Positions 3 through 16,042 of a DNA stretch of 64,000 nucleotides are shown here, piece by piece; position 1 is the first letter of the stretch, and the number at the start of each line of letters is the position of its first letter. The notes under the pieces were generated by a model. It did no database searches, was not told the origin of the DNA, and was given only the letters and a program-made list of their open reading frames with translations. This stretch comes from an uncultured Acidobacteriota bacterium (lineage in GTDB: Bacteria > Acidobacteriota > UBA6911): positions 96,001 to 160,000 of the forward strand of contig CAWJKZ010000011.1 in the NCBI GenBank assembly GCA_963843575.1, written 5' to 3'. The position numbers and the translations under genes were made by a program.

Positions 3-1970
3 GGTCTGGTAGAAGGGCACCAGGAACGATTGGGTGACATCCAGCGCGATTGTTCCGAGGTTGGAGTCGAGCGCACCGTCGGAGGCGGCGAAGGTAAACG
101 AATCTGCGCCCGCGTAGCCGCCGAGGGAATAGTAGGTCGCCGTCGTGCCGTTGATCCCGACGGTGCCGTGGGCCGGTTGCGTGACGACACGCAGTTGAAG
201 GGGGTTGCCGCCGGGACTGGACGCTTTCAGGGGAAAGGTCGCGGGCGTCCCGTTGCTCACGGCCACCGTGTCGTCGCTCACCGCCGGGGCCGGGTTCGGG
301 TTGGCTCGTTCGCTTCCCGGGCCGTTGTGGCACGTGTAGCAGCCGATCTGGGAGCCGCGCCAGAACTGCTTCGCGCCGAATTTTGTCGATACGGTCCGGT
401 TCCCCAAAGACCGGGACAGGACGGTGCCGCCGTAGTCGCGGCCGTGGCACCTTTGGCAGGCCGTGCTCCCTCCCCGCTCGACGGCTTCTTCGTGGCTGTT
501 GGCCCAGGCCTGGCCGATGGGATGCATGCCGTGCGGCCCGCCATTGACTGTGTTCGGCTGCACGTTGTGACAGGTGGGGCATTCGGAGATGGTCCCGACG
601 TGGTTCTGGAGTTGCAGGGCCTGGATGTTGTCGTTCCGGTGCGAGCTGGGATACTCGGCATGCGTGGAATGGTGACACGCAGAACACTGCAGGCCGCCGT
701 GCCCGCTGGAAAACCGGTAGAGCGAGGTGCCCGCCGCCGGCGTATTCGGGTTGGTCGCGAAGGTGGTGTCCGTGGGGACGCGGGGGAGGCCGGACGCGCC
801 GAACGCCGACGTGAACCGGATCTGTCCGCTGTTGTTCAATGCCGTCCCGGTGTGGCAGTTCTGGCAGTTCGGCTCGTCGAGCCAGCCCTGCCGTCCGGAG
901 GATCCAACCCTGTTCATCGTCCCGTGGCAGTTCTGGCACTGGATCTCGAACGAACCGTCCGCAGCCACGGCCGTCCCCATCGCGCCGCGAAGGCAACGAG
1001 TCTCGCCCCCGGGGTGACACCGGTAGCAGGCCGATCGGTTTGCGCTGGCGTCAAGGGTCTGGCCATTGGTGGGATCGAGCACGTGGGCGTGAAAGGCGTG
1101 CATCGCCCGGGTGAGCGGCAGTATCGTGCCGATTCCCGTTCCCGGAAGCGCGTTGGAGGAGTGGCAGCGGGCGCACAGGACGGCCTTGTTTCGGTCCACG
1201 GCAGTCGGATAGAGGCCGCTTGAATCGTAACCGGCCGCATCCAGGGCGGCGCGGAAATCCGCGGACCCGCCGTTTTTTTCGTCGTGCAGCCGGAGGATGT
1301 TGAGCCGGTAATCCCGTTCCGGATCGGCGTCGTAAATCCAGCCGTCGAGTGGCTGGCCGGCAGCCGCAGAGCCCGAGGCATGGCACGCCCGGCAGTCCAT
1401 CTCGTCGGAAACCGGCAGCACGATGTCCGTCGTCGCCAGGATGTTCCCTCCGGCGGCGCGAGCCACGAGGTGCATCATCGGGTACGGGTTCTTTTGCCCG
1501 GCGTCGTCGTAGGGTGTAATCGGAATTCCCTCCGCGACAAAGGCGTTCACGCTCGCGTCGAATCTCATCGGCTGGGGCTGGTTCGCGGCCCCGGGCATCC
1601 GGCTGCCCGCCAGGCCCGTGTCGACGGGGAGTGTGGCCCCGAACAGGTTGAAAAGCTGCAGCCAGAATGTGGTCTTGTTCGCCGACGTCGAGTTTATCGA
1701 TCCGGTGGGGTCTGCAAGCGCCTCGTACGTGACCGTCACTCCCGAAGGGATCCTGACCAACCGGCCGGAGGCGTCCATCAGGTGTGCCTGGACGGTGTTG
1801 TAGGGCGGCAGTATCGAAAAGACGGTGTAGTCGGAATCCATGCAGTGCATCCCCAGGTTGTTCCAACCGACCAGGGTCCATCCGCCCGCGCCCGCGCCTC
1901 CAAGATAGAGGGAGTGGCTGAAAAGTGACAACGTGAGGACAAGGGCCGCACTGAGAGTCTTGTGTCTCAT
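3..1970 (-). CDS. Secreted multiheme cytochrome c (9 CxxCH) with C-terminal Ig-like domain; 3' end runs off the window
   Basis: Manual translation from ATG at 1970: signal-like MRHKTLSAALVLTLSLF, then GWNNLGMHCMDSDYTVFSILPPYNT. Heme motifs CRACH, CARCH, CYRCH, CQNCH x2, CSACH, CPTCH, CQRCH, CYTCH, then an Ig-like segment (QPAHGTV...GYAGADSFTFAASDG). The plus-strand ORFs 30..1223 and 1284..1928 are its antisense shadows. Confidence 0.9.
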   Translation of the reverse strand, partial: MRHKTLSAALVLTLSLFSHSLYLGGAGAGGWTLVGWNNLGMHCMDSDYTVFSILPPYNTVQAHLMDASGRLVRIPSGVTVTYEALADPTGSINSTSANKTTFWLQLFNLFGATLPVDTGLAGSRMPGAANQPQPMRFDASVNAFVAEGIPITPYDDAGQKNPYPMMHLVARAAGGNILATTDIVLPVSDEMDCRACHASGSAAAGQPLDGWIYDADPERDYRLNILRLHDEKNGGSADFRAALDAAGYDSSGLYPTAVDRNKAVLCARCHSSNALPGTGIGTILPLTRAMHAFHAHVLDPTNGQTLDASANRSACYRCHPGGETRCLRGAMGTAVAADGSFEIQCQNCHGTMNRVGSSGRQGWLDEPNCQNCHTGTALNNSGQIRFTSAFGASGLPRVPTDTTFATNPNTPAAGTSLYRFSSGHGGLQCSACHHSTHAEYPSSHRNDNIQALQLQNHVGTISECPTCHNVQPNTVNGGPHGMHPIGQAWANSHEEAVERGGSTACQRCHGRDYGGTVLSRSLGNRTVSTKFGAKQFWRGSQIGCYTCHNGPGSERANPNPAPAVSDDTVAVSNGTPATFPLKASSPGGNPLQLRVVTQPAHGTVGINGTTATYYSLGGYAGADSFTFAASDGALDSNLGTIALDVTQSFLVPFYQT

Positions 1971-2302: not shown

Positions 2303-3640
2303 TCAGACCGAGCGGCGGCCCCGATGCGCGCGCCAGTACACCGGGACGCCGGTCAGCACCAGCGCAAGCCCCAGGAGCGAGCTCCGCGGCGATTCCACCA
2401 GCGTGTTGATCACGAACATCGCCGAGACGACGACGAACACGAGCGCCGTCCAGGGATAGCCAGGCAACCGGTATGGACGCGGCCAGTCGGGGTGCCTGAC
2501 CCGCAACACGATCACGGAGGCCACCGCCATCGCGAAGAGGATCCACCCCGCGAACATGGCCATCGTGATCAGGTGCTCGTAGCCGCCGGTCAGGGTCAGA
2601 ACCGCCGCCCACAGGCTCATGATCACGATGGCATGCGCCGGCGTCTGGTAGCGCGGGTGAATCTCGCTGGCCCAGTGGAAGAAGGGGTTGTCGCGCGCCA
2701 GCGCAAAGAAGATGCGCGGCCCGGCAAGCACGTTCGCGGCGATGGCCCCGAAGGTCGAGCAGAGGATCGCGAGCGTGATCAGGGTGCCCCCGGCCGGTCC
2801 GACCATGGCTACCATGGCGTCGGTGGCGACCCGGGTAGATCCCGCGATGGCCGCCTGCCCGAGCACGTAGATGTAAGCCAGGTTGGCGCTGACGTAGACG
2901 CCGATGACGATGAAGACGCCAAGCAGGATGCCGAGCGGGATGTTGCGCTGGGGGTTCCGGATCTCTCCGGCGGTGAAACCGACAAAGTGCCAGCCGTCGT
3001 AGGCAAACAGGGTCGAGATCATCGCGACCCCGACCGCCGCGGCCAGCCCCGTCCGGTAAGCCTCCGGCCACAACGGGAGGAAATTCCGGGCCGACGCTCC
3101 GTCCGGGTGCATGAATAAGGCGAGCCCGACCAGGGCGGCGATGCCCGCGATCTTGAGAAACGCGAACAGATTCTGCACCCGCGCGCCCCACACGGTCCCG
3201 CGGCAGTTGACGGCCGCAAGCACCAGGATCAGCACTATCCCCATCCCCTTTTCCTGCCACGGCGCCAGGGGGAGGAAATACTTCAGGTACATCAGGAACG
3301 CCGCCGTCAACGCGGCGATCGGCGCGGCAATCACCACCAGGAGGTTGGTCCAGCCGTAAAGAAAAGCCCAGAACGGCCCGTACGCCTCCCGGATGTAGAC
3401 ATACAGCCCGCCGGAATGGGGCAGCATCGCCCCCAGTTCGGCGAGCGTCAGGGCGCCGCACAGCACCAGCAACCCGGTGAACAGCCAGATCGCGATGACG
3501 AGCCCGGGCTCGGCAATCCGTTGGGCGATCAGGCTGGGTACGACGAAGATCCCGGAACCGATGACGGCGCCCACCAGCAGGAGCGCGGCATCCGTCAGGC
3601 CAAGCTTGCGAGGCAGTTCGGTCGTTACCGGCATGTTCAT
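2303..3640 (-). CDS. APC-superfamily amino acid permease
   Basis: GAVIGSGIF, AELGAMLPHSGGLYVYIREAYG and FAYDGW...AGEIRNPQRNIP motifs; about 12 hydrophobic segments. Confidence 0.92.
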   Translation of the reverse strand: MNMPVTTELPRKLGLTDAALLLVGAVIGSGIFVVPSLIAQRIAEPGLVIAIWLFTGLLVLCGALTLAELGAMLPHSGGLYVYIREAYGPFWAFLYGWTNLLVVIAAPIAALTAAFLMYLKYFLPLAPWQEKGMGIVLILVLAAVNCRGTVWGARVQNLFAFLKIAGIAALVGLALFMHPDGASARNFLPLWPEAYRTGLAAAVGVAMISTLFAYDGWHFVGFTAGEIRNPQRNIPLGILLGVFIVIGVYVSANLAYIYVLGQAAIAGSTRVATDAMVAMVGPAGGTLITLAILCSTFGAIAANVLAGPRIFFALARDNPFFHWASEIHPRYQTPAHAIVIMSLWAAVLTLTGGYEHLITMAMFAGWILFAMAVASVIVLRVRHPDWPRPYRLPGYPWTALVFVVVSAMFVINTLVESPRSSLLGLALVLTGVPVYWRAHRGRRSV

Positions 3641-3782
3641 GGCCGCTCATCATAGCCCACCCGAAGCTCCCGCGAGAACCTAATGAATCGCCCAAACCGG
3701 CTGGGGGCGCTCTTTTTGCTTTGCCTGGACGGGCTCTTTCGCTTTAATGGCACCATACGGGTCGAACTCCGGAGGCAGGACG

Positions 3783-4784
3783 ATGAAGAAGCTCATCAAC
3801 GATCCCCGCGACTTCGTGGCCGAAATGCTCGACGGCCTGCTCAAGGCGCACCCCGATCAGCTGGGCTTCGCGGCGGGAGATCACCACTGCATCGTCCGGG
3901 CGGATGCGCCCGTCGACGGCAAGGTGGCGCTCGCAACCGGCGGCGGGTCCGGACACCTGCCGGTTTTTCTCGGGTACGTGGGGAAAGGCCTGCTGGACGG
4001 CTGCGCCGTCGGGGACGTTTTTGCCTCCCCCAATGCGGAGCAGATGCTCGCAGTCACTCGCCGCATCCACGGGGGGAAGGGCGTCTTGTACCTGTACGGG
4101 AACTACGGGGGTGACGTCATGAATTTCGACATGGCGGCGGAGATGGCCGCCATGGACGACATCGAGGTCCGCACCGTCCTGGTCAAGGACGATGTCGCTT
4201 CGGCGCCGGCCCTGGAAGCGGACCGGCGCCGGGGCGTGGCCGGCATGGTCTTCGCCTTCAAGGTGGCGGGCGCGGAAGCCGACCGGGGCGGTTCCCTGGA
4301 CGACGTGGAGCGGGTGGCCCGCAAGGCGCTCGCCCACATCCGCACCATCGGGGTGGCGCTTTCCCCGTGCACGGTGCCGGCCGCCGGGCGTCCGACCTTC
4401 ACCATCGGCGAGAACGAGATGGAGATCGGCATGGGTATCCACGGCGAGCCCGGGGCGCGCCGCGAGGAACTCAAGAGCGCCGACCAGATCGCCGAGCGCA
4501 TGACGGAGGCGATCCTGGCCGATATGCCCGTCGGACCCTCGGATCGGGTCGCGGTGATGCTCAACGGGCTCGGGGCCACCCCGCCCGAGGAACTCTACAT
4601 CCTCTACCGCCGGGTGCACGACCTCCTCACAAAACGGGGCGCGCTTGTCCATCGCGCCTACGTCGGCGAGTACGCGACGAGCATGGAGATGGCGGGGGCG
4701 TCGCTGACCGTCTTCAAGCTGGACGACGAACTCGTTGCGCTGCTCGACCGCCCGGCGCGCTCCCCGTTTTTCGTGCAGACATAG
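3783..4784 (+). CDS. dhaK: Dihydroxyacetone kinase family, K subunit
   Basis: MKKLINDP, GGGSGHLP, VFASP, GNYGGDVMNF, RRGVAG, GMGIHGEPG; RBS GGAGG upstream. Confidence 0.92.
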   Translation: MKKLINDPRDFVAEMLDGLLKAHPDQLGFAAGDHHCIVRADAPVDGKVALATGGGSGHLPVFLGYVGKGLLDGCAVGDVFASPNAEQMLAVTRRIHGGKGVLYLYGNYGGDVMNFDMAAEMAAMDDIEVRTVLVKDDVASAPALEADRRRGVAGMVFAFKVAGAEADRGGSLDDVERVARKALAHIRTIGVALSPCTVPAAGRPTFTIGENEMEIGMGIHGEPGARREELKSADQIAERMTEAILADMPVGPSDRVAVMLNGLGATPPEELYILYRRVHDLLTKRGALVHRAYVGEYATSMEMAGASLTVFKLDDELVALLDRPARSPFFVQT

Positions 4785-4791
4785 AGACCGC

Positions 4792-5436
4792 ATGGCAGAC
4801 GGAACTTTCAACGGCGAGCAGGTGCGCCAAGCGGTTGTGCGGGTCTCGGAGCGCCTGGGCGAACTCGGGGATCTGCTCAACCGGCTCGACGCGGCGGTCG
4901 GCGACGGCGATCTGGGGATCACCGCGGTCAAGGGCGGGGCGGCTCTCCGCGAGTACGCCGCGGCGCAGCCTCCGGTTTCCGATCTCGGAGCCTTCTTGAG
5001 CGGGGCGGGCATGGCTTTCAACCGGGCGGCGTCGAGCACCTTCGGAGCCCTGGCCGCCACGGCGCTCATGCGGGCCGGCAGGGAACTCAAGGGGCTCGAC
5101 GCACTCGATGCCGCATCCCTTGCACGGGCCCTGACCGCCGCCGATGCCGGCGTCCAGGAGCGAGGCAAGGCCCGCCCGGGCGACAAGACCCTGGTCGACG
5201 CCCTGCACCCCGCCGCCGAGGCGTTCGCCGCCGCCATTGCCTCGGGCCACGATGTCAGAACGGCAGCCACGTCGATGCTGGAGGCCGCCCGGGCCGGCCG
5301 CGACGCCATCGTCCCGCAACAGAGCCGTATCGGCCGCGCATCCTGGGTCGGCGAGCGCACCCGCAACCAGCCCGACCCCGGCGCCGTCCTGATCGTCCAC
5401 CTCCTCGAAGCAATAACAGGGGACGGACCCGGGTAA
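4792..5436 (+). CDS. dhaL: Dihydroxyacetone kinase family, L subunit
   Basis: LDAAVGDGDLG, GKARPGDKTLVDAL, GRASWVGER...DPGA. No dhaM nearby. Confidence 0.9.
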   Translation: MADGTFNGEQVRQAVVRVSERLGELGDLLNRLDAAVGDGDLGITAVKGGAALREYAAAQPPVSDLGAFLSGAGMAFNRAASSTFGALAATALMRAGRELKGLDALDAASLARALTAADAGVQERGKARPGDKTLVDALHPAAEAFAAAIASGHDVRTAATSMLEAARAGRDAIVPQQSRIGRASWVGERTRNQPDPGAVLIVHLLEAITGDGPG

Positions 5437-5522
5437 CGCTATTTGTTATAAATGGTTATGGCAGTTTTCGACCACAAAATGGCCCTTATTTCGTGTTTTT
5501 GACGCCTTTTTCTTGAAATAGT
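5419..5522 (+). repeat. Family A fixed-geometry element (copy 1), overlapping the dhaL 3' end
   Basis: GGGGACGGACC 5419-5429, 55 nt, CTTAT 5485-5489, 28 nt, ATAGT 5518-5522. Confidence 0.85.
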
Positions 5523-5730
5523 GCATGCGGCGGCAGGCAGTCGTTGCGTCGCTCGCGGTGAACCTCTAGATTACTTTCTGTTACGCCGAACGCCGCACAA
5601 AGGAACTTGGAGATTCTGCGAGTGCTTTGAGCCTTGGTGGCGAGCTTTAGACTGACCTCCAGGGCTCAAAGTATTCACAGAACCTCGAAGAGCCCTGAAG
5701 AACAACGTGCGAGGTGTTGGGGGAGATCGT

Positions 5731-6594
5731 ATGCCGGATATGAAGAAGCGGATGGCCGAGAAGAAGCCCCTGGTCGGGGTGGGTGCCCGCGACGCGCTCG
5801 AGGCGCGATTAATCGAGCGGGCGGGATTTGATTTTGTCTGGTCGAGTGGTTTTGCGATTTCCGCGGCCTACGGCGTGCCCGACGCGAGCCTGATCACGAT
5901 GAGTCAGCTGGTCGAGTCCGCCCGCGCCATGGCCGAGGTGATCGACATCCCGATCCTGGCCGATTGCGACACCGGCTTTGGCAACGCCATAAACGTCATC
6001 TACGCGGTCCGGAAATTCGAGGATGCGGGCGTTGCGGCCATCTGCATGGAGGACAAGAAGTTCCCCAAGGACACCAGCTTGCTGCCGGGGGGCAGGCAGG
6101 AACTGGTCTCCGTAGAGGAGTTCGCCGGCAAGATCGCGGCGGCGGTGGATACGCGCAGGAGCCGCGATCTCGTGGTCGTCGCCCGCACCGAGGCGCTCAT
6201 CGCCGGCTGGGGGCAGGAGGAGGCGCTCGAGCGTGCGCGTCGCTACGAGGAGGCCGGGGCGGACTGCATCCTGGTTCATTCCAAGTCGAAGACCCCGGAT
6301 GAAGTTCTCGAATTCGTCTCCAGGTGGGACGGGAAAGTGCCGGTGGTGCTCATCCCCACGAACTATCCCAGCCTTACCGAGTCGGAGGTGTGCCGGCTGG
6401 GGAAGGTGGGGATGGTGATTTACGCGAACCAGATGCTTCGCGCCGCCATAACCGCCCAGGAGGCTCTGCTCGCCGAAATCAGGAAGACCGGCGGCATCCA
6501 CACGGTCAACGCCTCCATCGTGCCGGTCGCGCGCGTGTTCGAACTGCAAAACGTCGCCGGCATGAAAGAGAACGAGAAGAAATACCTGCGGTGA
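5731..6594 (+). CDS. palA: Phosphonopyruvate hydrolase (PEP mutase/isocitrate lyase superfamily)
   Basis: DCDTGFGNAINV and loop EDKKFPKDTSL...GRQELV..EEFAGKIAAA. The DTS form matches phosphonopyruvate hydrolase rather than the PEP mutase EDKxxxxxNS signature. Confidence 0.82.
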   Translation: MPDMKKRMAEKKPLVGVGARDALEARLIERAGFDFVWSSGFAISAAYGVPDASLITMSQLVESARAMAEVIDIPILADCDTGFGNAINVIYAVRKFEDAGVAAICMEDKKFPKDTSLLPGGRQELVSVEEFAGKIAAAVDTRRSRDLVVVARTEALIAGWGQEEALERARRYEEAGADCILVHSKSKTPDEVLEFVSRWDGKVPVVLIPTNYPSLTESEVCRLGKVGMVIYANQMLRAAITAQEALLAEIRKTGGIHTVNASIVPVARVFELQNVAGMKENEKKYLR

Positions 6595-6645
6595 TTCGGG
6601 CGGCGGAACCGATGTGCCAGTTTTTGTGAGCCAGGAGTTTGAACG

Positions 6646-7530
6646 ATGCCGGTCCGAGTGGGTTTCGTCGGTTGCGGTGAGGTCGCCTCGATCTTTTCCG
6701 CGGCCATGCTCGAGCGCGGCGCGGATGTTGCCGCGTACGATGTCGTCCGGGAGAAGGCCGCGGGGGCCGGGCTGGCTTTCAAGCCGTTGCCCGAGCTGGT
6801 CGAGTGGTCGGACTACCTGCTGTCGACCGTCACAACCTCGTCGGCCGCGGCCGTCGCCGCAGCCTGCACGCCTAATCTGAAGGTGGGGCAGTTCTATGTC
6901 GACCTCAACTCGACCTCGCCTTCGCTCAAAATCCGCCTGAGTGAGGTCGTCCGGCCGAGCGGGGCGCGGTTCGTGGAGGGCGCCATCCTGGGAGCGGTCG
7001 GGGTCACGCGCGCGGGCACCCCCATTCTGCTCGGTGGGACCGCGGCTGAGGAAGCGGCTGCGGCACTCGCCGCGCTCGGACTGCGCGTTTCCGCCTATAG
7101 CGCGGAGATCGGCAAGGCGTCGACGTTCAAGATGCTGCGCAGCATCTTCTCCAAGGGACTGGAGGCCCTGATCCTCGAATTGCTCATCGCCGGCCGCCGG
7201 GCGGGGATCGAAGCGGACCTGTGGAGGGATGTCTCGGAGTTCATGGCGCGCAACCCTTTTGAGCGCGTCGCCGATAACTGGCTGCAGACGCACGCCGTCG
7301 CCTTCGAGCGGCGCTACCACGAAATGGTGCAGGTGCGGGAGACCATGGGCGAGATCGGGCTGGAACCGATCATGACCCGGGCGACGGAGGCGTTCTTCGC
7401 GCGTTCGTGCACGCTCGGCCTGACCGATGCCTTCCCTTCGAAGCCGTCCTCCATGGACCAGGTGGTCGCCTATCTGGAGCGGCGCCTCGGTCCCGAGCCG
7501 CCGAAGAGCCGGGAAGGGCAGGCCGATTGA
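6646..7530 (+). CDS. NAD(P)-dependent oxidoreductase, 3-hydroxyisobutyrate/6PGD-like with DUF1932-type C-terminus
   Basis: Rossmann motif GFVGCGEVA, YVDLNSTSP, ASTFKMLRSIFSKGLEAL. Confidence 0.8.
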   Translation: MPVRVGFVGCGEVASIFSAAMLERGADVAAYDVVREKAAGAGLAFKPLPELVEWSDYLLSTVTTSSAAAVAAACTPNLKVGQFYVDLNSTSPSLKIRLSEVVRPSGARFVEGAILGAVGVTRAGTPILLGGTAAEEAAAALAALGLRVSAYSAEIGKASTFKMLRSIFSKGLEALILELLIAGRRAGIEADLWRDVSEFMARNPFERVADNWLQTHAVAFERRYHEMVQVRETMGEIGLEPIMTRATEAFFARSCTLGLTDAFPSKPSSMDQVVAYLERRLGPEPPKSREGQAD

Positions 7531-8879
7531 TGCTCCCGCTTTTCGAGAGGCTTAAACCGGCGCCCGCCGCCGCACCGCTCACCGATGCCCGGGAAATCGA
7601 CGACACCTACCGGCGCTGGCGTTCCAGGACCCTCTGGGGCTGCTTTTTCGGCTACACGGTATTCTATTTCTGCAGGCGCAACATTCCGCTTGCCCTCCCG
7701 AAGATGGCTGCCGAGATGGGATTGAGCAAAGCGCGCCTCGGCATGATCGAATCGGCCGGCCACATCGCCTACGGAACCGGCAAGTTTGCCAACGGGGTGT
7801 TAGCCGACCGGACCAATCCCCGATACTTCATGGCGCTGGGCCTGTTTCTTACGGCGCTGACCAACATCCTGTTCGGGTTGAACTCCTCGCTGCTGGTCCT
7901 CACACTGGTCTGGGGCCTGAACGGCTGGTTTCAAAGCATGGGATTTCCGCCGGGCGCGCGGCTGCTGAGCCACTGGTTTTCCCCCGCCGAGCACGGCTGG
8001 ATCTGGGCCATCTACGGCTGTTCGCACCAGGTCGGAACCGCGCTCATCAGCGTCGCGGCCGGCTATCTGGTCGGGTCCGGGTGGCGACTGACATTCCACG
8101 TCCCGGCCGTTGCGGCGCTGCTCGGCTCGGTTTATCTTTATCGCCGGCTGCGCGACATCCCGGCGTCGATGGGACTGCCGCCGGTGGAGCTCTACCGCGG
8201 GGACTTCGTCGACCGCAAGAGCGTCGAGGCGCTCGAGCAGCCTCTCACGGCAAGGGAAACCCTCCTCGGCTACGTCCTGAACGACCCCCACATCTGGTTT
8301 GTCGCCCTCGGCAACTTCTTTCTGTACATCGCGCGCTATGGCGTCAACACCTGGCTCCCCATGTTTCTCCAGGAGGACCGGGGCATGTCGATGGCGACTG
8401 CGGGCTGGATGTCGGCCGTTTTCGAGGCCGGCGGGGTCCTCGGGATGTTGAGCGCCGGGTGGGTCTCCGACAGGTTCTTCGGTGCGCGACGCGGTCCCGT
8501 CATGGGCATCTTCATGGCCGGGCTGTCCCTGGCCATGCTGGGGTTCTGGCGCGCGGACTCGGTCGCAGCGTATGTGCTGGCGCTTGCCGGGAGCGGGTTC
8601 CTCGTGTATGGGCCCCTGATGCTGGTCAGCGTGGCCGCCGCCGGCTTTGCCGGCAAGAAAGCCGCCGCCAGCGCGGCCGGCTTGTGCGGCTTCTGGGGGT
8701 ACATGGGTGCGACCGTTTCGGGCGCGGGCGTGGGGAAGCTCGTCGACGTGGCCGGGTGGAACGCAGGCTTTGCCTTCCTCATCGGCTCCTCGGTGCTGAG
8801 CTCGTTCTTCTTCGCGCTGACCTGGAACGTGAAGCCGCGCGCGATGCAGGCGTCCGCCGGCAAAGCCGCCGGCGCGTGA
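7530..8879 (+). CDS. MFS organophosphate:Pi antiporter (GlpT/UhpT/UhpC family)
   Basis: TGATG coupling with the upstream gene. YFCRRN, AYGTGKF, LNGWFQSMGFPP, SHQVG and YIARYG retain the Arg/Lys/His/Arg residues used by GlpT for phosphoryl binding. Confidence 0.88.
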   Translation: MLPLFERLKPAPAAAPLTDAREIDDTYRRWRSRTLWGCFFGYTVFYFCRRNIPLALPKMAAEMGLSKARLGMIESAGHIAYGTGKFANGVLADRTNPRYFMALGLFLTALTNILFGLNSSLLVLTLVWGLNGWFQSMGFPPGARLLSHWFSPAEHGWIWAIYGCSHQVGTALISVAAGYLVGSGWRLTFHVPAVAALLGSVYLYRRLRDIPASMGLPPVELYRGDFVDRKSVEALEQPLTARETLLGYVLNDPHIWFVALGNFFLYIARYGVNTWLPMFLQEDRGMSMATAGWMSAVFEAGGVLGMLSAGWVSDRFFGARRGPVMGIFMAGLSLAMLGFWRADSVAAYVLALAGSGFLVYGPLMLVSVAAAGFAGKKAAASAAGLCGFWGYMGATVSGAGVGKLVDVAGWNAGFAFLIGSSVLSSFFFALTWNVKPRAMQASAGKAAGA

Positions 8880-8904
8880 CGCTTGCCCGATGTCTCCGAC
8901 TCGA

Positions 8905-9015
8905 GTGGGTCCGGGCGGTCCGGGCTTCAGCCCGGACGCTGTTTGCGGTCGCCATAACGCGCGCGTCGTCACATAGATCAGATCAAAAGACGTCCGGGCT
9001 GAAGCCCGGACCCAC
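8905..9015. repeat. Family C REPIN-like element (inverted pair of GTCCGGGCTTCAGCCCGGAC palindromes)
   Basis: Reverse-complement homologue of 29008..29119. Confidence 0.88.
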
Positions 9016-9070
9016 TTGTGTTTTTTGGCCTATGATGCCGAAGTAAAACGAGCGTCGCGGGACAATCGCC

Positions 9071-9079
9071 TGATATAAT
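9071..9079 (+). promoter_or_regulatory. Extended -10 promoter element
   Basis: TGATATAAT (TGnTATAAT) about 30 nt upstream of the GTG at 9112; GGAGG RBS at 9101. Confidence 0.5.
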
Positions 9080-9111
9080 CGGGCCGATTCGCCCGTTGCT
9101 GGAGGTCGGGA

Positions 9112-10270
9112 GTGAAGTACGTGGTTACTGCGTTTCGCCCCGCGCTCATGGTTGTGGGGATCTTGCTTGCGGGGATGTCCGGCGATTCGCAGGCCTGCAA
9201 CGTGCCGGCCTTCCGTTATGCGCTCGAACGGTGGCCTGCCGACCCCTATCAGATACTGGTTTACTGTCAGACCGCGCCGCAGGGCGAAGCGTTCGACCTG
9301 CTGCGGAAGGGCGCGGCCGGACGTGGCGGCGCCAACTATTCCCTGAGACCGGTCGACGTTACCACACCCGAGGGAAAGGCGCTCGCGCAGGAGCGCGGTA
9401 TCGTCGCCTACCCGTGGGTCGAAGTCTTCTACCCAGTACATTTCCACGTTCGCGCTCCAATCTGGTCAGGCCCCCTCACCCCCGACCGTGTCACGCACAT
9501 CCTGGCTTCGCCCCGGCGGTCAGAGGTGGCCCGGAATCTGTTGGGTGGAGACGTCGCGGTCTGGGTCCTGATAAAAAGCGGCAGTGAACGGGAGGACGAG
9601 CGGGCGCTGCTGACCCTCAAGGCCAGCCTGGAACGTGCTTCGGCGACGCTCCGTATGCCTGAAATCGGCACGGACCTGAACGGCAACCCGGTCGAAGTCA
9701 CGGATTTCAAGACCTACCCCGTGCGCTTCAGCCTGTTGACCGCAGCGCGCAACGACCCTGAAGAAGAGCTGCTGGTCAGCGCTCTGCTGAAATCGGAGCC
9801 CGACCTGGAACAGGCTGACGGGCCGGTGGCCTTCCCCGTTTTCGGCCGTGGTCGCGCCCTTTATGCGCTTGTCAGCGGCGGTATCCAGGAGAAAAACATC
9901 CTCGAGGCGTGCCAGTCGATGCTCGACTGGTGTTCATGCGAGATCAAGGCGCAGAACCCGGGGACCGACCTGCTGATTGCGGCGGACTGGTCCAGACCGT
10001 CCGGCGGGAAGATGGTCAAGGACCCGGAGTTGCCCCTGGCCGGGCTGAGTGGATTTCGCCCAGATCAAAAGGTAGCGGAAGCCGTGGCGGCCGTCGACAA
10101 GCCCGACCCCGCCGAACCGCGGGTGGCGGTGCGCCCCGATCGACACCGCGGCGCCGGCGCCGGCTCCACGCAGGAGCCCGCTCGTGCGCAACGTGCTGTA
10201 CCTGGCCGGCGCCGCCGGCCTGGTGCTGGTGGCCCTCTCGGTGGTCGTGACCGTGAAGTCGAAGAGATGA
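9112..10270 (+). CDS. Conserved hypothetical exported protein with C-terminal membrane anchor (frameshift near 10120-10150)
   Basis: Signal peptide, CNVPAFRYALERWPADPY and CSCEIKAQNPGTDLL motifs. The hydrophobic tail LVRNVLYLAGAAGLVLVALSVVVTVKSKR* lies in another frame ending at 10270. Confidence 0.65.
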
Positions 10271-10345
10271 ACCTGCGTCCATCTTCGAGGTTCTTTCAGC
10301 TCTTCGCGCCTTCGAGGTCGATTCTCTGTAGCCTGGTGACCTGAC

Positions 10346-11613: not shown

Positions 11614-12279
11614 ATGCTCCTGCTCGAGAAGGTTGCCAAGATTTATTTCAAAGGAGACTCGCAGATCACGGCGCTGGCGGAGCTCGACCTGAGGGTCCGT
11701 CCGGCCGAGTTCGTCGCGCTGCAGGGGCCCAGCGGGAGCGGCAAGACCACCTGCCTCCTGGTCGCGGGCGGGCTGCTGCGCCCGGACCGGGGGAGGGCGC
11801 TCGTCGACGGCTGCGACCTCTATGCCATGACGCGCAACCGTCTCGCCGCCTTCCGCTCGCAGAACATCGGGTTTGTCTTTCAGCAGTACCACCTCATCCC
11901 ATATCTGACCGTGCTGGAGAACATCCTCGCTCCCGAAGCCGCGGGCGGACGGAGCGTCGACGTCGGCCGCGGCCGCGAGCTCGCAGGGCGGTTCGGCCTC
12001 GAGCACCGGCTCGATCACACGCCGGCCGAGCTGAGCTCCGGCGAGAAGCAGCGCACGGCGTTGGCCCGGGCGCTGCTGTTTCAACCCAGGCTCCTGCTGG
12101 CAGACGAAATCACCGGGAACCTGGATCAGGCGAATGCCCAAATCGTCCTCGGTTACCTGACGGACTACGTCAAGTCCGGAGGTTCGGTCCTGCTGGTGAC
12201 GCACGACCGCGAAATCGCGAGGCAGGCTCACCGCGCCGAGTATCTGGCTGACTCCGCAGGATTGGAGGTTCCGCGGTGA
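11614..12279 (+). CDS. ABC transporter ATP-binding protein (LolD-like)
   Basis: Walker A GPSGSGKT, LSSGEKQR signature, LLLADEITGNLD, VTHD. Confidence 0.93.
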   Translation: MLLLEKVAKIYFKGDSQITALAELDLRVRPAEFVALQGPSGSGKTTCLLVAGGLLRPDRGRALVDGCDLYAMTRNRLAAFRSQNIGFVFQQYHLIPYLTVLENILAPEAAGGRSVDVGRGRELAGRFGLEHRLDHTPAELSSGEKQRTALARALLFQPRLLLADEITGNLDQANAQIVLGYLTDYVKSGGSVLLVTHDREIARQAHRAEYLADSAGLEVPR

Positions 12280-15200
12280 AAGAGTTGGTTGCGCGCGTCG
12301 CGCTCGGATTCCTGTTGATCGCAGGCCTGCTGCTGCCTTCGGCCCTGGCCGGTGATTGGCCGATGTGGCGCCACGACGCCGGGCGGACGGCTGCGGCCCC
12401 GGAGGAACTGCCGGCGCAGCTCCATCCGCAATGGGTGCGCCAGTATTCCCCGCGGGAACCGGTCTGGGACGATCCCTTGAATCAGGACCTGATGCCCCTC
12501 GACGGCGTGTTCGAGCCGATCGTGCTGGGCGACACGTTGTATGTCGGATTCAACGACCGCGACAAAGTGGTGGCCCTGGACACCCGAACCGGGGTGGAGA
12601 AGTGGTCCTTTTTCGCCGACGGGCCGGTTCGCCTGCCGCTGGCCGGCCGGGCCGGCCGGCTCTATTTCACCAGCGACGACGGTTATCTCTACTGCCTCTC
12701 CGCAGACACCGGAACCTTGCGGTGGAAATTCCGGGGCGGCCCCGCAGACCGGAAGATCCTGGGCAACAAGCGCCTGATTTCCACCTGGCCGGCACGGGGC
12801 GGGGTGGTCGTCTACGGCAACGTCGTGTATTTCGCCGCCAGCATCTGGCCGTTCATGGGAACGTTCATCTACGCCCTGGACGCCGAGACCGGCCGCGTCA
12901 TCTGGCGCAACGAAGGCACCGGCGCGGATTACCAGAACCAGCCGCACAACTCCCCCGCATTTGCCGGGATCGCGCCCCAGGGCGCGCTCGTGGCCCTGGC
13001 CAACCGCCTGCTCGATACCGGGCGGACGGTCCGTGCCGGCTTGCTTCGACCGCCGCACGGGGAAGCTCCTGTACTATCACCTGGCCGAGTACAACAAGAC
13101 CGGCGGCGCGTTCGTCGCCGCCGACGAGGCCCGCTTCTTCAATCACTACAGGGATCGCGACACGGACCTGTACGACGTGCTCAACGGCAAGGTCGTGGCG
13201 CGGAAGGTCGGCAGATACCCGGTCCTGTCCAGGTACGCCTACTACATGTCCGGCGACTCGATCACCGTGCGCGACGCCCGGCAGCCCAAGGCCGCGCAAT
13301 TCGCGCTGAAACTGGATGCGACGGGCGACCTCATCCGCTCCGGGTCCCGCTTGTACGCCGGCGGCGAAGGCCAGATCGCCGCCGTGGACATCGTGTGGAA
13401 CGGCAAACTCCGCAAACGCAGTCTGAAAACCGCGTGGGTGCAAAAGGTGGAGGGCAAGGTCGGGCGGTTGGTGGCGGCCAACGGCATGCTCTTCGCCGTC
13501 ACGCTCGACGGCAAGCTGATCGCCTTCGGGAAGGAAGACGTTTCCGGTCCGGACCCACCTGGAGAAGGCCGCGGCCCCGGAAATCACGCCGGACGAAGCG
13601 CGAACAGGCCCGCGCCATCCTCGACCACACGGGGGCGAAGGACGGGTACGCCCTGCTCTACGGTGTCGGGAACGGGGATTTGCTCGCCGCCCTGGCCGCA
13701 GCGTCGGACCTGCACATCGTGGCGGTGGAGCCAGGAGCAACGGCGGTGGCCGATCTGCGCCGCCGCTTCGACGCCCTTGGCCTGCTGGGAAAGCGTGTCC
13801 ACCTGCTCGAAGGAACTCCCGACACGTTCGAGGCGCCCCCCTACTTCGCCTCGCTGATCGTGCTCGCCTCCGGAGGCGAGCGCTTGCCCAGCGACGAGTC
13901 CCTGCGGAAAATGGTGAGGTCTGCGAGACCTTACGGGGGAAAATCTGGCTGCCGTCGGGCGCCGGGCAGCAGGCCAGCCTCGCCCGGCTGCTCGGGAAGT
14001 CCGATGGTGCGACGCTCTCCGTCCGGTCATTCGCGCGCGGTGCGGTGTTGAGCAAGGACGGGCCGCTCCCCGGAGGCGCCGCCAACTGGACGCACCAGTA
14101 CGGCAACGTCGCCAACACGGTGAAATCGGACGACGGCCTGGTCAAACTGCCGCTGGGGGTGCTGTGGTTCGGGGGCGTTTCCAACCTCGACGTCCTGCCG
14201 CGCCACGGACACGGCCCGCCGGAACAGATCGTCGACGGCCGCCTGATCATCGAAGGCATCGACTCCATCAGCGCCCGCGACGTCTATACCGGCAGGGTGC
14301 TGTGGAAAACCCCCTTGGACAAGGCCGACACGTTCGGCCAGTATTACGACGAGACCTACCAGCAGGACATCCCGCTGACCGTTATCACCAATCAGCGGCA
14401 CATCCCGGGCGCAAATGCCCGCGGGACGAATTTCGTCGCGACCTCCGACCGTGTCTACGTCGTGCAGGGGAATCGCTGCTATGCCCTTGATCTCACGACG
14501 GGCGAGACGAAGAGCGTCTTCTCCCTCCCCGCCGAAAACGGCGCAGAGCCGGCCCGCTGGGGATACGTCGGCGTTTCCGGCGACAGTCTGATCGCGGGGA
14601 GCGACTTCGTTCCGTTCTCGAGCTCATCCCAGAGCGCGGCGAGCCCCGGGGAAACTGCGGCCCTGACCGAACGGGAACGAGCCAGGCTCAAGGTGTCCCC
14701 CGTGTTCGACCTCACGGCCAGCAAGTCGCTGGTGGTCATGGACCGCCACGACGGCTCGGTCAAATGGAAGATAGACGCGCGCCACGGCTTCATCCACAAT
14801 GCCATCACCGCGAGCGACCGGGTGGTGTTCTGCCTCGACAAACTGCCGCCCTCGCTCGAGAAGAGGTTGCGGCGCCGCGGCCTCGAGCCGCCCACCGACT
14901 ATCGCCTGCTGGCCCTGGACCTGGAGACGGGGCGGGTCCTGTGGGAACGGAATACGGGTGTCTTCGGCAGCTGGCTGAGCTACTCGCTGGAGCACGACCG
15001 GCTACTGCAGGCGACCCGGCCCTCCAGCGACATGATCGCGGACGAGACGGGCGAACGCATGGCGGTCTACGCCGCGTCGACCGGAACACTCGTGTGGGAC
15101 AGGCCGATCAAGTACGGCAACCCTCCTATCCTGTACCGGGACGAGATCATCACCGACCGTGCGGCCTACATGCTGGCCACCGGCGAACGGAAGCTTCGGG

Positions 15201-16042
15201 TGGATCCGGTGACGGGCGAAGAGATGCTCTGGAGCTATTCGCGCGCCTATGGCTGCAACTACAACATCGCCAGCGAACACCTGCTGTCTTTCCGGTCCGC
15301 TGCCGCCGGGTTCTATGACCTGTTCTCGGATGGCGGCACCGGGAACCTGGGCGGCTTCAAGTCGGGGTGCACCTCCAACCTCATCGCCGCCGGCGGCGTG
15401 CTGAATGCGCCCGATTACACCCGGACGTGCCAGTGCTCCTATCAGAACCAGACGTCCCTGGCGTTCATCCACATGCCCGAGCTGGAGTACTGGACGACGA
15501 ACGACTTCGTGTGGAACGCCAAGCGAGTCGGGAGGCTGGGCATCAACCTCAACGCGCCCGGCGACCGGGTCGCGTCTGACGGCACCCTCTGGCTGGACTT
15601 TCCCAGCGTGGGCGGGAAATCTCCCGACCTCCCCATCGTGTTCGATCCGGCGAAGACGCGCCCGATCCGCAGGCATGCCCTCACCCTGAAGCCGAACGGG
15701 TACGAGTGGGTGGCCGCCTCCGGGCTATCCGGACCGCTCAAACTGAAAATCACCCTGTCCGGCGAACCGTCGGACAAGGCGACTTACACCGTCAAACTGC
15801 ACTTCGCCGAGCTGGAGAACAAGAAGCCCGGCGAACGCGTCTTCAACGTCAGGCTTCAGGATAGCGAGGTCCTGCACGGATTCGATATCGCGAAGGAAGC
15901 GGGCGGGGTCGACACCCCGGTGGTCCGGACCTTCGAAAAAATCGCGGTGAAGGACGCCCTCACCGTCGAGTGCCTTCCCACCACGGCCGGGACCGGGGCC
16001 CCGCCGCTGCTGAGCGGCATCGAGGTCATCCTGGAAGAGTAG
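12276..16042 (+). CDS. Large PQQ-binding-like beta-propeller protein with central methyltransferase-like segment and C-terminal malectin-like domain; split by frameshifts
   Basis: DWPMWRHDAGRT N-terminus and repeated ALD..TG...W propeller blades. The reading continues across frames (12276, 12961, about 13600, 14045). C-terminus YTVKLHFAELE...RVFNV..Q...VL..FDI...PLLSGIEV is malectin-like. Confidence 0.75.

Follow-up and report, generated by a model that had tools for sequence, protein, structure and literature searches.

We analysed a window of 64,000 nucleotides from an uncultured Acidobacteriota bacterium (contig CAWJKZ010000011.1, positions 96,001 to 160,000), in which an operon of three genes on the plus strand encodes a predicted hydrolase of the PEP_mutase family (gene 1, 287 aa, 5731..6594), an NAD(P)-dependent dehydrogenase with a DUF1932 domain (gene 2, 294 aa, 6646..7530) and an OPA-family transporter of the major facilitator superfamily (MFS) resembling GlpT, PgtP and UhpC (gene 3, 7530..8879). 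From sequence comparisons we propose, with moderate confidence, that the products of this operon would import phosphonolactate (2-hydroxy-3-phosphonopropanoate), oxidise it in an NAD-linked reaction and hydrolyse the C-P bond of the product; all substrates and reactions of the operon are those that we infer. In the predicted route, the GlpT-type antiporter would import the phosphonate, probably against internal inorganic phosphate (Pi), the DUF1932 dehydrogenase would oxidise the hydroxyl group at C2 with NAD+ to yield phosphonopyruvate, and the PalA-type enzyme would hydrolyse the C-P bond to give pyruvate and Pi. The dehydrogenase would take the place of the aminotransferase PalB of the phosphonoalanine pathway, a transaminase which is the single known feed of PalA (PMC3266647, PMC10574752). 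A first-pass annotation of the window had listed the three genes, the loop of gene 1, the stop/start coupling of genes 2 and 3 and the lack of a nearby aminotransferase. All of these particulars were correct, and no aminotransferase was found among the larger open reading frames (ORFs) of window positions 1-16 kb.

Comparisons of the gene 1 product (PF13714, 192.5 bits) supported its placement on the PalA, or hydrolase, side of the family and not among the canonical phosphoenolpyruvate (PEP) mutases. Its loop reads MEDKKFPKDTS, with Thr instead of the Asn of PEP mutases; according to a review summary of Chen et al. 2006, this loop residue decides between hydrolase and mutase (PMC3266647), and the motif EDKX5NS serves as a filter for calling PEP mutases (PMC8942020). 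The best NCBIfam model was TIGR02321, the equivalog model of phosphonopyruvate hydrolase (PPH), with 342.1 bits and a cut-off of 374.4, whereas the score on the PepM model TIGR02320 was 278.2 bits, under the cut-off of 319.55, and the EDKX5NS motif was also absent. The closest relative in the PDB was the Variovorax PPH 2dua (E = 1.4e-95); two PEP mutases ranked below it. As a reference we used the PPH-annotated gene of Variovorax paradoxus (L095; labels of this kind denote single loci), which lies in a PalB-linked cluster of LysR, ATP-binding cassette (ABC) transporter, aminotransferase and PPH genes and whose product scores 644.7 bits on TIGR02321. The gene 1 product is 55% identical to this PalA, and the blocks DxDTGFGN, EDKxFPKDTSL, ARxEALIAG and HS(K/R)xKTP are identical between the two. 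The loop Thr was also present in 2dua and in all four proteobacterial PalA-clade proteins examined, two of which adjoin an aminotransferase. We then reconstructed a quick tree with IQ-TREE (60 rows, a single outgroup, SH-aLRT supports), in which the window protein fell into a clade of 48 rows (SH-aLRT 99) that was sister (92) to the PalA clade (97), with the PEP mutases outside; the basal sub-clades of the 48-row clade all have Thr. The earlier identification of the enzyme as a phosphonopyruvate hydrolase with the EDKKFPKDTS loop agrees with these results, as does the position that the PalA and PepM references give it in the tree.

Many unrelated genomes share this gene order, far beyond chance. 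We examined it in a dehydrogenase-seeded scan with one genome per species (80 loci, neighbours identified by tblastn with the window proteins) and in a hydrolase-seeded metagenome scan, which gave at least 599 stretches (more than 597 relatives) and of which 80 loci were kept. A hydrolase/mutase-type gene adjoins the dehydrogenase gene in 23 of the 80 genome loci, 18 being of the PPH type (59-76% identity to gene 1) and five of the PepM type (41-48%). A GlpT-like gene (48-74% identity) adjoins or follows the dehydrogenase in nine of the 80, and the full trio in the order of the window was found in seven (L016, L025, L044, L047, L072, L075 and L080), including a cultured strain, Adhaeribacter aerolatus NBRC 106133 (L072). 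Note that several genome loci end right after the dehydrogenase, so these partner counts are lower bounds. According to the genome records, the PPH-type pair occurs in Acidobacteriota, Chloroflexota, Armatimonadota, Gemmatimonadota, Planctomycetota, Bipolaricaulota, Spirochaetes and Bacteroidota, and the PepM-type pair in Firmicutes. Among the metagenome matches listed, 17 loci were at least 61% identical over the whole of gene 1, and 14 of these had at least 600 nt downstream; the dehydrogenase lies directly 3' of the hydrolase in 11 of these 14 evaluable loci, and a GlpT-like gene continues the pair in three of the 11. One metagenome locus (L110) appears to be the same contig as the genome locus L054. 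The three exceptions have a class IV aminotransferase nearby (L111), a thiamine diphosphate (ThDP) enzyme resembling phosphonopyruvate decarboxylase, Ppd (L113), and a PalB-like aminotransferase (L118). The expectation of the first-pass annotation that the trio would be conserved elsewhere was therefore confirmed, for the pair in both scans and for the whole trio in the seven genome loci.

The transporter (MFS_1 match) had GlpT, PgtP and UhpC as its best NCBIfam models (TIGR00712, 371.7 bits; TIGR00881, 350.4 bits), all under their cut-offs, and is thus no orthologue of any named OPA member. It aligns with Escherichia coli GlpT (1pw4) over residues 9-429 (E = 4.6e-90), and the GlpT blocks LVRKN, SKF, CAHNVG and LLRYG are kept as CRRN, GKF, CSHQVG and IARYG. 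We take these blocks to hold R45, K80, H165 and R269 of GlpT, the substrate-binding Arg, Lys and His residues. The full-length similarity and the four blocks are in line with the earlier description of an OPA antiporter with intact phosphoryl-binding residues. By description, the transporter can be likened to the 2-aminoethylphosphonate permease AepP, an OPA-family MFS importer of a phosphonate which also keeps the phosphate-binding residues (PMC8316502), although the substrate of AepP differs from that proposed here.

All transporters that adjoin the pair on the same strand are of an uptake type or antiporters. They are OPA transporters in the window and the seven genome trio loci, ABC systems dependent on a substrate-binding protein (SBP_bac_6/8, with a fused permease as in the Variovorax pal cluster) in L048, L104 and L054, and TTT importers in L060, L066, L105 and L020. 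Genes for phosphorus scavenging are neighbours in several loci (GDPD, metallophosphoesterase, a Ugp-like ABC system and alkaline phosphatase). In all ten pair-carrying genomes searched, no protein exceeded the PepM cut-off, and the linked gene was the only strong match to the PepM model, with a second, weaker match in one of them (G048). No canonical PEP mutase was found in the window's own genome (88% complete) either, which holds only gene 1 and a distant EDQ...CG paralogue. The carriers could thus not make phosphonopyruvate internally by a canonical mutase, and this, together with the uptake-type transporters, favours the catabolism of an imported compound.

A biosynthetic role was also considered: the gene 1 product would form phosphonopyruvate by PEP mutase activity, its reduction to phosphonolactate by the dehydrogenase would draw the unfavourable equilibrium forward, and the product would leave the cell through the transporter. 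Reduction to phosphonolactate is a recognised driver of PepM, as in the case of VlpB (PMC8942020, bioRxiv 10.64898/2026.01.15.699783), about one third of the members of the gene 1 clade carry EDKX5NS, and L113 has its Ppd-like neighbour. However, the window enzyme has Thr and not Asn and is under the PepM cut-off, the transporters at the pair include importing SBP-dependent ABC and TTT systems, and downstream tailoring genes are not conserved; we regard this role as very improbable. VlpB, from valinophos biosynthesis, interconverts phosphonopyruvate and phosphonolactate, the pair of compounds proposed for the window, but it is a biosynthetic enzyme of the D-2-hydroxyacid dehydrogenase family PF02826 (PMC8942020), while the window enzyme is under the PF02826 cut-off and has another C-terminal domain.

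The dehydrogenase contains the domains PF03446 (NAD_binding_2, 37.2 bits, cut-off 21) and PF09130 (DUF1932, 37.3 bits), and its match to 2-Hacid_dh_C (22.4 bits) is under the cut-off of 25.1. Its C-terminal domain is DUF1932 and not the NAD_binding_11 of 3-hydroxyisobutyrate dehydrogenase (HIBADH) proper; the models of HIBADH, tartronate semialdehyde reductase and L-threonate dehydrogenase gave only 20-25 bits. The Rossmann motif GxGxxG/A is present as GFVGCGEVA, and the invariant residues are G9, G11, D32, K95, K162, R165, K170, H216, R222 and R223. As a general rule, an Asp that follows the second Rossmann strand (beta-2) indicates NAD+; the invariant D32 has this position, which suggests use of NAD+ and therefore oxidation. 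K162 (GKASTFKMLR) fits the G-x5-K spacing of the catalytic Lys of HIBADH, which lies in a G-x5-K-x2-N helix, as a pattern only, since the hidden Markov model alignments stop just before it. The nearest solved structures (4ezb, 3qsg and 1i36) are structural-genomics proteins, all uncharacterised, and the Protein Atlas contained only unnamed DUF1932 clusters without a functional lead.

In a tree of 69 dehydrogenase rows, all 19 hydrolase/mutase-linked dehydrogenases fell into one clade of 30 rows (SH-aLRT 96), which also includes three from GlpT-only loci, seven with neither partner (some at contig ends) and one linked to HpcH. The other HpcH-linked dehydrogenases fill other clades, and the tree requires no more than two switches of partner. 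This second partnership, in which the dehydrogenase is followed by a class II pyruvate aldolase of the HpcH/HpaI type, is found in 35 of the 80 genome loci (for example L036 6282-8717 and L063 312-5358). The distance of the aldolase partner from YfaU and HpaI is similar to the distance between those two, and its scores are under every equivalog cut-off. The HpcH-linked loci contain TctC and GntR-FCD genes in Burkholderiales, and gamma-glutamyltranspeptidase and a peptide-type ABC importer in Usitatibacter and Casimicrobiaceae.

The reactions of PPH and of class II aldolases follow the same outline: a 2-oxo acid is bound, its C3 substituent is expelled and the enolate of pyruvate is left. A dehydrogenase that converts X-CH2-CHOH-COO- to X-CH2-CO-COO- would account for both the PPH and the HpcH partnerships, and where X is phosphonate, the substrate would be phosphonolactate. 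Phosphonolactate is both a 2-hydroxy acid and a beta-hydroxy-phosphonate, with the type of hydroxyl group that is oxidised by enzymes of this fold. The combination of an HpcH aldolase and a beta-hydroxyacid dehydrogenase is also known from GarL/GarR, which resembles the aldolase-linked sister context. In GarL/GarR the dehydrogenase reduces the aldehyde product; such a role explains the aldolase partnership only, and it has no counterpart beside a phosphonopyruvate hydrolase. The first-pass annotation had expected the operon to provide a function for a DUF1932-type dehydrogenase. This expectation stands in part, in that a dedicated hydrolase-linked clade exists, whereas the frequent pairing with HpcH aldolases shows that the family as a whole is not phosphonate-specific.

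Three other roles of the dehydrogenase were considered. The enzyme might be a deaminating amine or amino-acid dehydrogenase which forms phosphonopyruvate by oxidation of phosphonoalanine or one of its N-substituted forms, in place of PalB and by a different chemistry. Imine reductases share the 6PGDH/HIBADH-type fold, gamma-glutamyltranspeptidase and peptide-type ABC genes neighbour some of the HpcH-linked paralogues, and in L111 the class IV aminotransferase occupies the usual place of the dehydrogenase. In addition, no natural feed of PalA other than phosphonoalanine is established (PMC10574752, PMC3266647), and the GlpT-like AepP imports an aminophosphonate (PMC8316502). The 6PGDH/HIBADH-fold members that were actually matched, however, are oxidoreductases of hydroxyl or carbonyl groups, K162 occupies the place of the HIBADH catalytic Lys by the G-x5-K pattern, and the Ldh_2 protein of the Firmicutes loci described below has as its best family L-sulfolactate dehydrogenase, a 2-hydroxy-acid enzyme. 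We therefore consider a deaminating role unlikely.

A similarly low probability is assigned to the possibility that the dehydrogenase acts further upstream, on 2,3-dihydroxypropylphosphonate or phosphonolactaldehyde, and that housekeeping enzymes finish the route to phosphonopyruvate. To judge from the family names, beta-hydroxyacid dehydrogenases interconvert primary and secondary alcohols and aldehydes, and Bacteroidota loci with Amidohydro_2, class II aldolase, glycoside hydrolase and sulfatase genes hint at a larger conjugate as the nutrient. Such a route needs two or three extra oxidations, though, and only transporters recur beside the pair. The 2,3-dihydroxypropylphosphonate derivative that the first-pass annotation had offered as an alternative substrate would require further enzymes, which are not present.

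The operon could also have nothing to do with phosphonates and combine a malate-like 2-hydroxy-acid dehydrogenase with an enzyme that decarboxylates or hydrolyses a different 3-substituted pyruvate, for instance oxaloacetate or sulfopyruvate. Members of the same dehydrogenase family with the same invariants pair with HpcH-type enzymes in carboxylate contexts (TctC, GntR-FCD), the oxaloacetate decarboxylase PA4872 (3b8i) belongs to the superfamily of PEP mutase and isocitrate lyase, and PPH-like proteins above the TIGR02321 cut-off occur in housekeeping contexts without a feeder (L165, 444.6 bits; L121, 401.7 bits). On the other side, gene 1 shares its active-site blocks and more than half of its residues with a PalB-linked PalA, the OPA transporter retains the phosphate-binding blocks, and several loci have phosphoesterase, alkaline phosphatase or Ugp-like genes nearby, so that we find it improbable that phosphonates are not involved.

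Several results weigh against the phosphonolactate route. The score of gene 1 falls short of the TIGR02321 cut-off, and the loop Thr is not fixed: among the 120 closest homologues of gene 1, 76 have Thr, 38 Asn and one Ala, with five unparsed. The Asn forms are nested among the Thr forms, with four Thr/Asn changes on the tree, and they are also found in full trio architecture (L044, L047, L112 and L115). One Asn form (L113) adjoins the Ppd-like ThDP enzyme in divergent orientation, and by its gene content this neighbourhood is a biosynthetic context. The DUF1932 dehydrogenase family is not phosphonate-specific; its HpcH-linked and hydrolase-linked groups share the charged invariants K95, K162, R165, K170, H216, R222, R223 and E226, and consistently differ only at T233 and M234. 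The operon contains no regulator gene, and its leader contains no recognisable Pho box. No close relative of genes 1 and 2 was found in the 40 related genomes searched, so that vertical conservation could not be used, and no fusion of the hydrolase and the dehydrogenase was found among the longer proteins at E <=1e-20, which is weak evidence. Finally, as of 2022, phosphonolactate had been obtained only from the spent medium of one valinophos producer (PMC8942020), so that its environmental supply is unproven. The earlier reading of the operon as catabolism of an imported hydroxy-C3-phosphonate is supported in part, by the PalA-side clade, the conserved pair and trio, the exclusively uptake-type or antiporter transporters and the lack of a canonical PEP mutase in carrier genomes, and is weakened with respect to the loop Thr and the specificity of the dehydrogenase family. 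With regard to the latter, an attempt to define a phosphonate pocket from specificity-determining positions was rejected, since T233 and M234 are too few.

The mixture of Thr and Asn within one clade indicates that the Thr loop alone cannot settle the activity of the window enzyme. In the linked genome loci, nine had TS, eight D/E-NS and five T-NS, with one unparsed, and among the metagenome matches listed, five linked loci had TS and six NS. The sequence EDKxFPK(D/E)NS was found in the genome loci L020, L029, L031, L044, L047, L048, L054 and L085 and, among the metagenome matches listed, in L105 and L108-L117; these members of a PalA-sister clade therefore pass the EDKX5NS filter for PEP mutases, yet they lie in the same kind of operon with dehydrogenase and importer, L113 with its Ppd-like neighbour excepted. 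The five Firmicutes genes paired with the dehydrogenase, by comparison, group with the aepX-type PEP mutase (SH-aLRT 100), and one of them scores 396.6 bits on the PepM model, above the cut-off. The Firmicutes cluster (L060 2870-9870 and L066 2970-9826; also L043, L087 and L028) contains RpiR, TctC/TctA/TctB, the DUF1932 dehydrogenase, the PEP mutase and an Ldh_2 protein that scores highest on the L-sulfolactate dehydrogenase model (303-308 bits, under the cut-off of 500). L028 adds a galactonate-dehydratase-like protein of the enolase superfamily. From its gene content, the cluster looks like one for uptake and catabolism with the mutase as the C-P enzyme. The equilibrium of PEP mutase lies far towards PEP (bioRxiv 10.64898/2026.01.15.699783), and a mutase downstream of the dehydrogenase could, as a speculation, also be catabolic.

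These observations can be combined into a broader scheme, which we put forward as tentative and rather doubtful. There would be a widespread phosphonolactate module in which the output of the C-P enzyme is toggled by Thr/Asn: the Thr forms would give pyruvate and Pi, while the Asn forms and the Firmicutes PEP mutases would run in the favoured reverse direction and give PEP. The DUF1932 family would then consist of X-CH2-CHOH-COO- dehydrogenases (X = phosphonate or carboxylate) feeding X-expelling enzymes. If this were true, part of the phosphonate producers counted by EDKX5NS would be consumers.

The Firmicutes loci resemble sulfolactate degradation (SlcC/ComC and SuyAB), which uses a TTT importer and in which paired dehydrogenases convert the isosteric 3-sulfolactate to sulfopyruvate. 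The likeness lies in the company of the DUF1932 enzyme in these loci, a ComC-like Ldh_2 protein and a TTT importer. SlcC, however, belongs to the 2HADH family and not to DUF1932 (PMC6303947), and the sulfolactate system employs a C-S lyase on sulfolactate itself, whereas the window would employ a hydrolase on the oxo acid.

Among known phosphonate systems, the nearest is PalB/PalA (Variovorax sp. Pal2, represented here by the V. paradoxus locus), which shares with the window the type of C-P enzyme, the Thr loop and the sister-clade relationship, and which is likewise a substrate-specific operon with its own importer. It differs in its pyridoxal phosphate-dependent aminotransferase as feeder, its ABC importer and its LysR regulator, compared with the DUF1932 dehydrogenase, the OPA antiporter and the lack of LysR in the window. 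It also differs in distribution, since the close relatives of the window are non-proteobacterial, while 99% of the palA genes, in 201 genomes, are from Pseudomonadota according to a 2023 review (PMC10574752). A precedent for dehydrogenases that feed a phosphonohydrolase is the catabolism of 2-hydroxyethylphosphonate reported in 2026 (PhpC-type/PbfG, then PhnX/PhnA; PMC13576164), where a hydroxy-phosphonate is oxidised and a phosphonohydrolase then cleaves the product. In that route the dehydrogenases have the folds of an Fe alcohol dehydrogenase and of the Zn enzyme PbfG, and not the HIBADH-like/DUF1932 architecture, and a C2 skeleton is cleaved by PhnX, in contrast to the C3 carboxylate and the PalA-type enzyme proposed for the window (PMC13576164). 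A term search of the text of that paper for 'phosphonolact' and 'PalA' gave no occurrence.

Since the Pi set free would leave again by antiport, the probable gain from the trio is carbon and reducing power (pyruvate and NADH) and not net phosphorus. With 1:1 antiport and no net gain of phosphorus, growth on a sole phosphorus source, as suggested in the first-pass annotation, may be the wrong test. A role in carbon and energy supply would fit the expression of PalA, which is Pi-independent and induced by substrate (PMC10574752).

The full texts searched, subscription papers and supplements aside, gave no account of the catabolism of phosphonolactate or of a PalA fed by a dehydrogenase; PMC10574752, PMC3266647, PMC9381506, PMC8942020 and PMC13576164 were among them, and such neighbourhoods could be listed in Table S2 of PMC9381506 or in the supplementary gene-cluster figures of PMC8942020. 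Within the substrate-specific hydrolytic phosphonate pathways, the novelty would lie in the feeder enzyme, the importer and the predicted substrate. PalA is treated in reviews as rare and almost purely proteobacterial, and the sister clade described here is found in at least eight other phyla, hard-wired to a dehydrogenase of a family without known function. If the phosphonolactate route is correct, it would be the fourth substrate-specific hydrolytic phosphonate route and would give a DUF1932 clade its first function. Phosphonolactate or a close relative would then be a common environmental phosphonate, despite its one reported producer, and EDKX5NS, the standard filter for phosphonate biosynthetic potential, would also catch members of a catabolic clade. 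The cultured trio carrier makes the phosphonolactate route directly testable.

As to the layout of the operon, an intergenic leader and likely promoter region (5437..5730, plus strand) extends from the dhaL stop to the start of the hydrolase gene, with a ribosome-binding site GGGGAG at 5720-5725. The start of gene 1 at ATG 5731 is backed by this site and by homologues of 287 aa that align over 100% of the query. The dehydrogenase gene is preceded by AGGAG at 6633-6637, and its stop codon TGA (7528-7530) overlaps the ATG of the transporter gene (7530-7532) as TGATG. This overlap indicates that the translational coupling of the two genes, claimed in the first-pass annotation, is real; an alternative TTG start of the transporter is at 7527. 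A G+C-rich palindromic hairpin, GTCCGGGC-TTCA-GCCCGGAC, at 8992..9011 begins 113 nt past the transporter stop and is likely the end of the operon. It was called as a terminator-like site on the minus strand, and its stem is self-complementary, so that it may form on either strand. A sigma-70 consensus scan of 3500-9400 gave no site, and half-site searches found no Pho-box-like element common to the leader and the upstream regions of 17 related loci. The sequence CTGTTAC was considered as a shared upstream element and dropped, as it is present only in the window, L030 and L079, too few to use.

Upstream on the same strand, a pair of dihydroxyacetone-kinase genes, DhaK (Dak1) and DhaL (Dak2), occupies 3747-5436 and is separated from gene 1 by 294 bp. 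The listed dhaK and dhaL ORFs overlap by 50 nt, so that dhaL probably starts later. The two genes were rejected as operon partners, because tblastn gave no match to them in the 80 genome and 80 metagenome loci. Downstream of the operon, an ORF without a family match (9112-10344) is followed by an FtsX/ABC pair and then by two large PQQ-like beta-propeller proteins, one with a malectin domain (12276-16042, plus strand). At the other side, an MtrC/MtrF-like multihaem cytochrome with Ig-like domains (3-1970, minus strand) runs off the window start.

The operon is patchily distributed, as indicated by its absence from the 40 related genomes; a genome of the same genus (81% complete) is also without genes 1 and 2. 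For 5437-9020, no RNA data set was listed, and the DNA data sets listed all had small shares (0.12 or less). In the closest Bryobacterales genome locus (L079 7001-7844), the match to the dehydrogenase is split into two overlapping parts that lie in different frames, which is a frameshift or an assembly error. A Balneolales locus (L077 4321-9274) contains an alkaline phosphatase, a weak JmjC/cupin-like protein, a DUF1932 dehydrogenase and a GlpT-like transporter and lacks a hydrolase gene. Two Bacteroidota loci (L075 3776-9292 and L080 4894-9302), in which GH2, GH109-like and sulfatase genes are also present, have an Amidohydro_2 protein without an NCBIfam match ahead of the trio; in a Bryobacteraceae locus (L017 5712-7888) such a protein stands ahead of the dehydrogenase only. 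In L108 (2588-3676), a protein like 3-hydroxy-D-aspartate aldolase (BhcC, 270.7 bits, under the cut-off) follows the hydrolase-dehydrogenase pair. Among the metagenome matches listed, PPH-like proteins with EDKSFPKVTS or EDKTFPKDSS loops were found in L120-L124, L129 and L152-L169. No aminotransferase or dehydrogenase feeder was found beside these genes, whose contexts look housekeeping, with either ATP12, AsmA and carboxyl transferase or RNase E/G, an aldolase-SDR fusion and polyhydroxybutyrate depolymerase.

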